A stretch of 64,000 nucleotides of DNA from Escherichia coli (GTDB lineage: Bacteria; Pseudomonadota; Gammaproteobacteria; Enterobacterales; Enterobacteriaceae). The notes below the pieces were generated by a model. It was not told where the DNA came from. It saw only the letters and a program-made list of their open reading frames with translations, and did not search any database. The stretch is taken from NCBI RefSeq assembly GCF_036507355.1, contig NZ_AP027877.1; one strand, given 5' to 3'. Of this stretch, positions 2,742 to 3,505 are shown piece by piece; position 1 is the first letter of the stretch; each line of letters starts with the position of its first letter. Position numbers and translations under genes: made by a program.

Positions 2742-3118
2742 GAAGCTGACCAGACAGTCGCCGCTTCGTCGTCGTCCTCTTCGGGGGAGACGGGCGGAGG
2801 GGAGGAAAGTCCGGGCTCCATAGGGCAGGGTGCCAGGTAACGCCTGGGGGGGAAACCCACGACCAGTGCAACAGAGAGCAAACCGCCGATGGCCCGCGCA
2901 AGCGGGATCAGGTAAGGGTGAAAGGGTGCGGTAAGAGCGCACCGCGCGGCTGGTAACAGTCCGTGGCACGGTAAACTCCACCCGGAGCAAGGCCAAATAG
3001 GGGTTCATAAGGTACGGCCCGTACTGAACCCGGGTAGGCTGCTTGAGCCAGTGAGCGATTGCTGGCCTAGATGAATGACTGTCCACGACAGAACCCGGCT
3101 TATCGGTCAGTTTCACCT
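2742..3118 (+). ncRNA. rnpB: RNase P RNA component (M1 RNA)
   Basis: Read directly: GAAGCTGACCAGACAGTCGCCGCTTCG...GGAAAGTCCGGGCTCC...CGGCTTATCGGTCAGTTTCACCT, the 377-nt M1 RNA in sense orientation, followed by a GC hairpin and T run. Confidence 0.93.
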
Positions 3119-3265
3119 GATTTACGTAAAAACCCGCTTCGGCGGGTTTTTGCTTTTGGAGGGGCAGAAAGATGAATGACTGTCCACGACGCTATACCCA
3201 AAAGAAAGCGGCTTATCGGTCAGTTTCACCTGATGTACGTAATAAACCGTTCCGGCGGGTTTCAG
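3070..3265 (+). repeat. direct repeat of the rnpB 3' end plus terminator-like hairpin (about 100-bp period, two full units and a degenerate third further downstream)
   Basis: ATGAATGACTGTCCACGAC...GGCTTATCGGTCAGTTTCACCTGAT.TACGTAA.AACCCG.TTCGGCGGGTTT occurs at about 3071 and again at about 3172. Confidence 0.8.
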
Positions 3266-3289
3266 ATTGTTGAGTGCGCTTTATTCATG

Positions 3290-3390
3290 CTGGATGCGGC
3301 GTGAACGCCTTAGCCTGCCTACAAAAGCACGCAAATTCAATATATTGCAGAGATGGCGTAGGCCTGATAAGCGTAGCGCATCAGGCATTT
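3290..3390. repeat. REP-like palindromic element
   Basis: GCCTGATAAGCGTAGCGCATCAGGC-type palindrome. Confidence 0.6.
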
Positions 3391-3505
3391 TTGCGGTTGC
3401 CATCAGTTTCAAACCCGCGTCGATAAGTTTTTGCTTTTGGTGCACAGGGTAAGATGCATGAATATCTACGGTATTAATAATAGACTTTGTAAGAACTTAT
3501 TAAGT

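Follow-up and report, generated by a model that had tools for sequence, protein, structure and literature searches.

Reed and Altman reportedly described, in PNAS in 1983, a 113-bp sequence repeated about 3.5 times on the 3′ side of the M1 RNA gene. A related arrangement is present in Escherichia coli K-12 at tyrT/tyrV, where three copies lie 178 nt apart, the nearest of which overlaps the last 19 nt of tyrV and contains the annotated genes rttR and tpr. Tandem intrinsic terminators also follow highly expressed stable-RNA operons, rrnB T1–T2 being an example. Here we describe the 3′ flank of rnpB, the gene for M1 RNA, in a 64,000-nt stretch of an E. coli genome (contig NZ_AP027877.1; hereafter the window), in which the end of the gene recurs downstream. 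A repeat array at this place is an already known and ordinary feature of the E. coli rnpB locus, which the preliminary description of the window did not recognize, and the window very probably carries a short allele of it with about 2.5 copies.

Set beside the K-12 array, the locus in the window agrees in position, in unit sequence, in the start of the repeat at M1 nt 328, in the 113-nt period, and in the decayed last terminator, the bacterial interspersed mosaic element (BIME) and the terminal relic. It differs in having one downstream copy instead of three and hence no intact second or third terminator. The rnpB repeats and the 178-bp tyrT/tyrV repeats are both tandem direct repeats that start within the 3′-terminal part of a stable-RNA gene and run downstream, but they differ in sequence, period and host gene; moreover, the rnpB units have no small RNA (sRNA) or protein annotated in RefSeq and their open reading frame (ORF) is not conserved. 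As at rrnB, multi-copy rnpB alleles (K-12, Salmonella, Citrobacter and others) place successive intact terminators, each a hairpin with a U tract, after a heavily transcribed RNA gene. In contrast to those of rrnB, the rnpB terminators are copies of each other within duplicated gene sequence and their number depends on the strain; the window keeps one. The features of the locus are as follows.

2742..3118, plus strand: rnpB, M1 RNA (RNase P RNA, class A), 377 nt; full-length match to Rfam RF00010 at 318.6 bits, and rnpB is annotated in matching RefSeq genomes.
3069..3169, plus strand: repeat copy 1, 101 nt, comprising M1 nt 328–377, the 3′ trailer, terminator T1 and the spacer GGAGGGGCAGAA; from the repeat search and unit alignment.
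3126..3157, plus strand: T1, the sole intact intrinsic terminator in the window, GTAAAAACCCGC-TTCG-GCGGGTTTTTGC followed by TTTT; from RNA folding.
3170..3274, plus strand: repeat copy 2, a pseudo 3′ end; from the repeat search, alignments, a sub-threshold RNase P 3′ fragment and a weak hairpin.
3289..3386, no strand assigned: BIME, an inverted pair of repetitive extragenic palindromes (REPs; 3289–3322 and 3358–3386) around an IHF-type L motif; from REP pattern matches.
3411..3472, plus strand: decayed terminal unit (third copy) with a broken hairpin AAACCCGCGTCGATAAG, an intact tail TTTTTGCTTTTGG and a diverged head AGATGCATGAATATCTACGGT; from the repeat search and local alignment.
2706..2734, plus strand: promoter-like site of rnpB (GTGACA, 17 nt, TATACT), 10 of 12 matches in a promoter scan, 8 nt upstream of the M1 5′ end.
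3506..4693, minus strand: yhaC, convergent with rnpB and outside the array; from the annotation of matching genomes and translation.

The order garK–rnpB–yhaC, with garK ending at 2709, is that annotated in matching E. coli genomes; the locus was matched in 5425 of 5426 complete E. coli genomes, where all three genes are annotated. The array lies directly downstream of rnpB, between garK–rnpB and yhaC, which is where the E. coli rnpB 3′-flank array is located.

That about the last 50 nt of M1 RNA and its terminator recur downstream, as had been proposed from the sequence, was borne out: the segment 3069–3169 returns at 3170–3274, with exact repeats and an alignment score far above those of shuffled sequences. 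A repeat search of the window found AGATGAATGACTGTCCACGAC at 3069 and 3170 with 100% identity, together with an 83-nt repeat (3079–3161 versus 3192–3274) at 80% identity and a spacing of 113. The sequence GGCTTATCGGTCAGTTTCACCTG occurs exactly twice in the 64 kb, at 3097 and 3210 (113 nt apart), where shuffles lead us to expect none, and the local alignment of copy 1 with copy 2 scored 100 against 13.9 ± 2.2 for shuffles. Copy 1 starts at M1 nt 328, that is, 50 nt before the mature 3′ end, and the homologue of the M1 3′ end appears again at 3210–3232. Copy 2 can be divided into a head (AGATGAATGACTGTCCACGAC, 3170–3190), a diverged segment (GCTATACCCAAAAGAAAGC, 3191–3209), the M1 3′-end homologue (3210–3232) and a decayed terminator (3243–3272). 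Below its threshold, Rfam also reports copy 2 as an RNase P 3′ fragment (3119–3231, model positions 252–367, E = 4.5e-4).

Copies 1 and 2 stand head to tail but are separated by a 12-nt indel, M1 AGAACCC being replaced by GCTATACCCAAAAGAAAGC in copy 2, so that the head repeats after 101 nt and the remainder of the unit after 113 nt. Tandem Repeats Finder, run over 2500–4000 with the minimum score lowered to 30, reported no repeat, probably because of this indel and because there are only about two copies; both the repeat search and alignment make the repeats visible. In the pseudo copies the 12-nt insertion (window 3090–3096 versus 3191–3209) sits between CCAC and ACAGAACCC, in the J2/4 region. 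At that same J2/4 point the Rfam alignment of class A RNAs has a consensus stretch of 12 nt that is absent from E. coli M1, which is probably a coincidence.

The degenerate third copy noted in the preliminary description is also real, although it does not adjoin copy 2: about 110 nt of REP/BIME sequence (3289–3386) lie in between. The repeat search found it as two pieces, 3411–3440 (83%) and 3452–3472 (71%), and alignment of the repeat unit with this third piece scored 39 over 3411–3470, the maximum of 1000 shuffles being 28. It is the decayed terminal unit of every E. coli allele examined, single-copy alleles included, and in the latter the tail of the terminal unit follows directly after T1. 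The intervening stretch, with two inverted REPs and an IHF-type motif between convergent genes, belongs to the BIME/REP elements that are dispersed genome-wide; Rfam matches it to naRNA4 and ES036 below threshold, and each E. coli genome has a median of 18 sites that match this part of the query. In contrast to the flanking copies it is an inserted passenger in the array and no part of the rnpB repeat, and it has no counterpart in O157-type and single-copy E. coli alleles. A further REP lies in the window at 21489–21513 on the minus strand.

The preliminary description had supposed that the copies could give rnpB transcripts alternative 3′ ends or terminators, which does not hold for this window, where T1 alone is intact. 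T1 has the stable G+C-rich hairpin and immediate U tract of an intrinsic (Rho-independent) terminator: its 12-bp hairpin, followed by TTTTTGCTTTT, folds at −19.4 kcal/mol (z = −4.73, with 0 of 200 shuffles as good), and the T run occupies 3147–3157. The minus strand of T1 also folds (−15.7 kcal/mol, z = −3.07) and is followed by UUUUUAC, and T1 may therefore act in both directions. By comparison, the hairpin of copy 2 (3243–3272) reaches only −4.4 kcal/mol, a value equalled or bettered by 185 of 200 shuffles, and is followed by TTTCAGATTG in place of a U tract. Folding of copy 3 (3411–3440) gave no hairpin, the stem being broken. Thus neither 3243–3272 nor 3411–3440 qualifies as an intrinsic terminator, and with both hairpins decayed the extra copies in this strain cannot supply alternative ones. 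A simple promoter and terminator scan did not detect T1, probably because the most extended hairpin takes up part of the T run and leaves too few T; direct folding was used in its place.

The precursor of M1 RNA extends to T1, about 36 nt beyond the mature end, and an RNase E-dependent pathway removes this trailer. Positions in the window (mature end, 3118; T run, 3147–3157) fit this precursor, and rnpB would be transcribed from the promoter at about 2706–2734 and stop at T1 (3126–3157). T1 of rnpB has been used as a characterized terminator in synthetic-biology work (PMC3643576), which refers to Kim et al. 1996.

In K-12 MG1655 (NC_000913.3) unit heads lie at rnpB positions 328, 429, 542 and 655, the spacing after the first being 113 nt, and these four copies are followed by the same decayed last terminator, BIME and terminal relic as in the window. 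The window has the anchors at 328 and 429 only and is two 113-bp units shorter. The window unit has the K-12-like sequence and the 113-nt period, and it aligns to K-12 units 2 and 4: copy 2 of the window combines the head of K-12 unit 2 (GACGCT) with the decayed terminator of K-12 unit 4, a hybrid that fits the expected leftover of an unequal exchange between units. Against the approximately 3.5 copies of the K-12 reference the window falls short, since copy 1 is followed, besides the relic, by one downstream copy, compared with three in K-12; as copy number is polymorphic at one to five, this shortfall is a difference between alleles and no ground for exclusion. Unlike in the window, T2 and T3 of K-12 are intact by RNA folding (−19.2 kcal/mol), and alternative terminators may plausibly operate there. 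A Rho-dependent region on the rnpB strand of K-12, antisense to yhaC, has been mapped near 3269111 (minus strand of NC_000913.3), with 2111 reads upstream and 34 downstream (DirectRNA-seq; PMC7815308, supplementary file 2); its counterpart in the window is the body of yhaC downstream of 3506. Since this region lies past the array, transcription in K-12 either crosses the whole array or starts within it. The only curated Term-seq 3′ end near rnpB in MG1655 is the mature M1 end at 3270216 (Adams et al. 2021, PMC7815308).

Comparison of repeat copy number between strains, which had been suggested as a check, revealed polymorphism from one to five copies. We sampled the ranked list of the 5425 genomes at regular intervals, taking 60 rows, and measured the distance between fixed anchors in rnpB and yhaC, which ranged from 776 to 1397 bp. 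The estimated copy classes were one copy in about 16 genomes, two in 19, three in 6, four in 14 and five in at least one; four genomes with split anchors fall outside these classes. Loci that were read individually (L-numbers are our locus designations) fall into the following structures.

One copy, T1 then relic tail directly: L003, L013.
Two copies, no BIME: L004, L005.
Two copies and BIME: the window, L002, L007.
Three copies: L006, L009, L010.
Four copies: K-12.
Five copies: L011; L012 (also with IS1).

The O157-type loci L003 and L004 have 0 mismatches over 1178 nt apart from exactly one 113-bp unit, which indicates that copy number shifts on very short time scales. Two types of terminator hairpin are also shuffled among units, a short type, whose loop is TTCG, and a long type (by 7 nt in E. 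coli, 8 nt in Salmonella), whose loop is CAGCGTAAAC-like, and the E. coli and Salmonella arrays are mosaics of the two; in one common E. coli allele (L007 and L010) even the T1 of rnpB itself is of the long type. Together with the range of one to five copies and the O157-type pair, these mosaics uphold the earlier suggestion that the repeats are a substrate for recombination.

To look beyond E. coli, species-representative genomes were scanned for two exact copies of the 14-mer GGCTTATCGGTCAG located 85–115 nt apart. The scan returned 33 loci with two to six copies each and periods of 105–128 nt, spread over about 13 named genera of Enterobacteriaceae: Klebsiella, Enterobacter, Citrobacter, Kosakonia, Cedecea, Lelliottia, Buttiauxella, Yokenella, Atlantibacter, Phytobacter, Superficieibacter, Huaxiibacter and other species of Escherichia. 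Salmonella Senftenberg (L048, 3057–3800) has seven copies in which the two hairpin types alternate, at 108 and 116 nt, while a fragment associated with serovar Kentucky has two copies and subspecies houtenae one. In every genus the downstream copies have a homologous insertion of 12–13 nt and a changed P4 strand, found in no true rnpB 3′ end, which argues that the pseudo 3′ end arose once, before these genera diverged. By eye, the inserted segment can form a 5-bp hairpin in the Kosakonia type and not in that of E. coli. This family-wide conservation of a pseudo 3′ end with a common insertion does not seem to have been described, as we found no earlier account of it in the literature.

The copies within one genome evolve in concert. 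In the 40 nt after the core, the median number of mismatches to the second copy of the same genome was 10, compared with 22 to the copies of other genomes, and the M1-terminal nucleotides were identical in 19 of 31 loci; it is because copies are closer to the rnpB flank of their own genome than to the copies of others that we speak of concerted evolution. Internal units mostly have an intact hairpin and T tract, while the last unit usually does not and commonly breaks off just after the homologue of the M1 3′ end. Such a pattern is consistent with growth and shrinkage, by unequal exchange, of an ancestral array of about 1.5 copies.

Two observations from the scan stand apart. In Cedecea sulfonylureivorans (L017, 4560–7620) a 3-kb cassette lies between unit 2 and the decayed unit 3; by eye it appears to encode a 511-aa S-type bacteriocin-like protein and two small immunity-like proteins, and it contains no integrase. 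Enterobacterial rnpB arrays were also present on contigs labelled Chryseobacterium sp. 18061 (L035) and Microvirga antarctica (L045, 289 bp, Salmonella-like), and these two assemblies are probably mislabelled or contaminated.

From these comparisons we infer the following history. An ancient partial duplication would have left a second, non-functional M1 3′ end downstream of T1, marked by the 12-nt insertion and the mutated P4 strand. The resulting direct repeats of about 100 nt may then have expanded, contracted and exchanged sequence, by unequal homologous recombination or replication slippage, and by gene conversion. Such exchange between repeats would make copy number and terminator type vary between strains while keeping the copies within one genome alike. 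The state of the window would be reached by loss of the two 113-bp units that K-12 has, with the remaining downstream copy lacking a terminator, and the BIME would have come to lie between this copy and the decayed terminal unit. Where T2 and T3 are intact, the extra copies may act as back-up terminators that protect the convergent yhaC from transcription running on past the very highly transcribed rnpB. In the window they do not work as terminators and would be a dispensable, recombination-prone remnant.

Several other explanations of the repeats can be set against a known, recombining array. Units might be small protein-coding genes: a purine-rich, Shine–Dalgarno-like GGAGGGG precedes an ATG (ATGAATGAC...) that would open a short basic, arginine-rich peptide of 33–38 aa in E. 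coli, comparable to the protamine-like Tpr, and the window has such ORFs at 3071–3175 (34 aa) and 3172–3273 (33 aa). The analogous tyrT repeats include the annotated tpr gene, an exact-sequence look-up showed that a few genome annotations sporadically label unit ORFs as "hypothetical protein", and the 1983 description is said to have pointed to ORFs in the units as well. Yet the ORF stops after nine codons in 12 of the 33 loci that have the downstream ATG (as in MNDCPRRSS* and MNDCPLRFL*), peptides of 9 up to at least 60 aa result when translation is capped at 60, and Klebsiella and Yokenella are out of frame relative to E. coli. In addition, the unit periods (101–128 nt) are mostly no multiple of three, conservation coincides exactly with the stretches that the units have in common with M1 RNA, RefSeq annotates no gene in the K-12 array, and the array is apparently transcribed only by read-through of T1. 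A Tpr-like small gene was rejected on the grounds that the frame is not conserved among relatives (units translated from 34 loci), and coding units are most improbable. It is very unlikely as well that the extra copies are attachment-site scars of integrative elements at the rnpB 3′ end, each having brought a replacement 3′ end in a succession of integration and decay. The pseudo copies do begin inside an RNA gene, and in many genera the last one ends just after the position of the M1 mature 3′ end; the DNA past the array is variable (AT-rich yhaC–yhaB in E. coli, absent in APEC O2-211), and the bacteriocin and immunity cassette of Cedecea lies between two units. But no integrase is annotated or visible from rnpB to the tdc operon in E. 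coli or Salmonella, nor in the Cedecea insert; homology of the units continues through terminator and spacer, as in a tandem duplication and unlike attachment-site cores, and units differ by whole-period steps. In the phage and plasmid collections no genuine phage or plasmid with the sequence was identified, most matches being chromosome-sized or obviously chromosomal records filed there; one match in Enterobacter roggenkampii, to a 90,865-bp plasmid record, was left aside. An attachment site in the RNA gene was rejected, as neither an integrase near the arrays examined nor a phage or plasmid attP copy was identified.

The units could instead make a functional RNA, either a unit-sized product of read-through, comparable to RttR, or a decoy whose P1 and P2 3′ strands pair with the M1 5′ end, with an effect on the biogenesis of RNase P or on some other process. 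Throughout the family the pseudo 3′ end is conserved, with near-invariant tracts (GATGAATGACTGTCCAC and AAGAA.GCGGCTTATCGGTCAG), tyrT/tyrV has the same architecture with the annotated sRNA gene rttR in the repeat, and transcription on the rnpB strand of K-12 extends past the array. Against this, RNase P is the only Rfam family that matches the arrays of E. coli, Salmonella and Citrobacter at gathering thresholds, and the invariant tracts are shared with an essential gene and track the rnpB variants of their own genome, as gene conversion predicts. Single-copy alleles are common in E. coli, the downstream unit of the window has no terminator to set an RNA end, and the K-12 array has no curated 3′ ends, all of which makes such an RNA very unlikely. 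Chance similarity or an assembly artefact, for which only the blank result of Tandem Repeats Finder in 2500–4000 could speak, is refuted by the exact repeats of 21 and 23 nt, none of which is expected in shuffles, and by alignment scores far above those of shuffles; the same structure is moreover present in thousands of complete genomes, and we give this reading next to no weight.

Some points weigh against our own account, that of a known array shaped by recombination with a possible back-up terminator role in longer alleles. Its identity with the K-12 array is established by sequence comparison. The copy classes of the 60-genome sample were inferred from span length, calibrated on 13 loci that were read (including the window, K-12 and EC1515), and 12 of the approximately 16 single-copy rows had no joined yhaC anchor, one of these 12 having been dissected. 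Any back-up terminator role would be dispensable, because about one quarter of the sampled E. coli seem to be single-copy and the window has no second working terminator. In MG1655, curated Term-seq lists no 3′ ends in 3269600–3270199, which includes T1, T2 and T3 (PMC7815308); this is weak evidence, since reads from identical repeats may be unmappable. Finally, gene conversion may not be the whole reason why the pseudo 3′ end, in which head and core tracts are nearly invariant, has persisted across the family; selection could have kept it. Selection might keep the head, the 12-nt insertion, the mutated P4 strand and the P1 strand through an RttR-like, unit-sized RNA from read-through, or through an action in cis on the folding or 3′ processing of read-through M1 precursors, and we regard this as unlikely.

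In the neighbouring yhaC of the window there is an in-frame stop at codon 116 (...PLKN*EIST...), and yhaC in this strain is thus either a pseudogene or holds a sequencing error; in EC1515, the closest genome, the gene is intact (1188 nt). E. coli C21 (L012, 4145–4842) has an IS1 between its five-copy array and yhaC, which contains an internal stop and is annotated there as a pseudogene. In APEC O2-211 (L013, 3400–3950) only fragments of yhaC and yhaB are left, and tdcR follows almost directly after rnpB. The DNA beyond the array is unstable, as these two strains illustrate.

By itself the window is of little weight, being a short allele of an array reportedly known since the early 1980s, and one in which T1 is the only working part; further attention to the array would be warranted only by the discovery of an RNA product or a phenotype. 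Its repeats have practical consequences, in that short-read assemblies can collapse or mis-size the locus and that the array is a fast-changing length marker among otherwise identical strains. How many terminators separate the heavily transcribed rnpB from the convergent yhaC depends on the strain. Across the family, the rnpB cassette is a clear small case of concerted evolution beside an essential RNA gene, and one in which the copies are homogenized against that gene.

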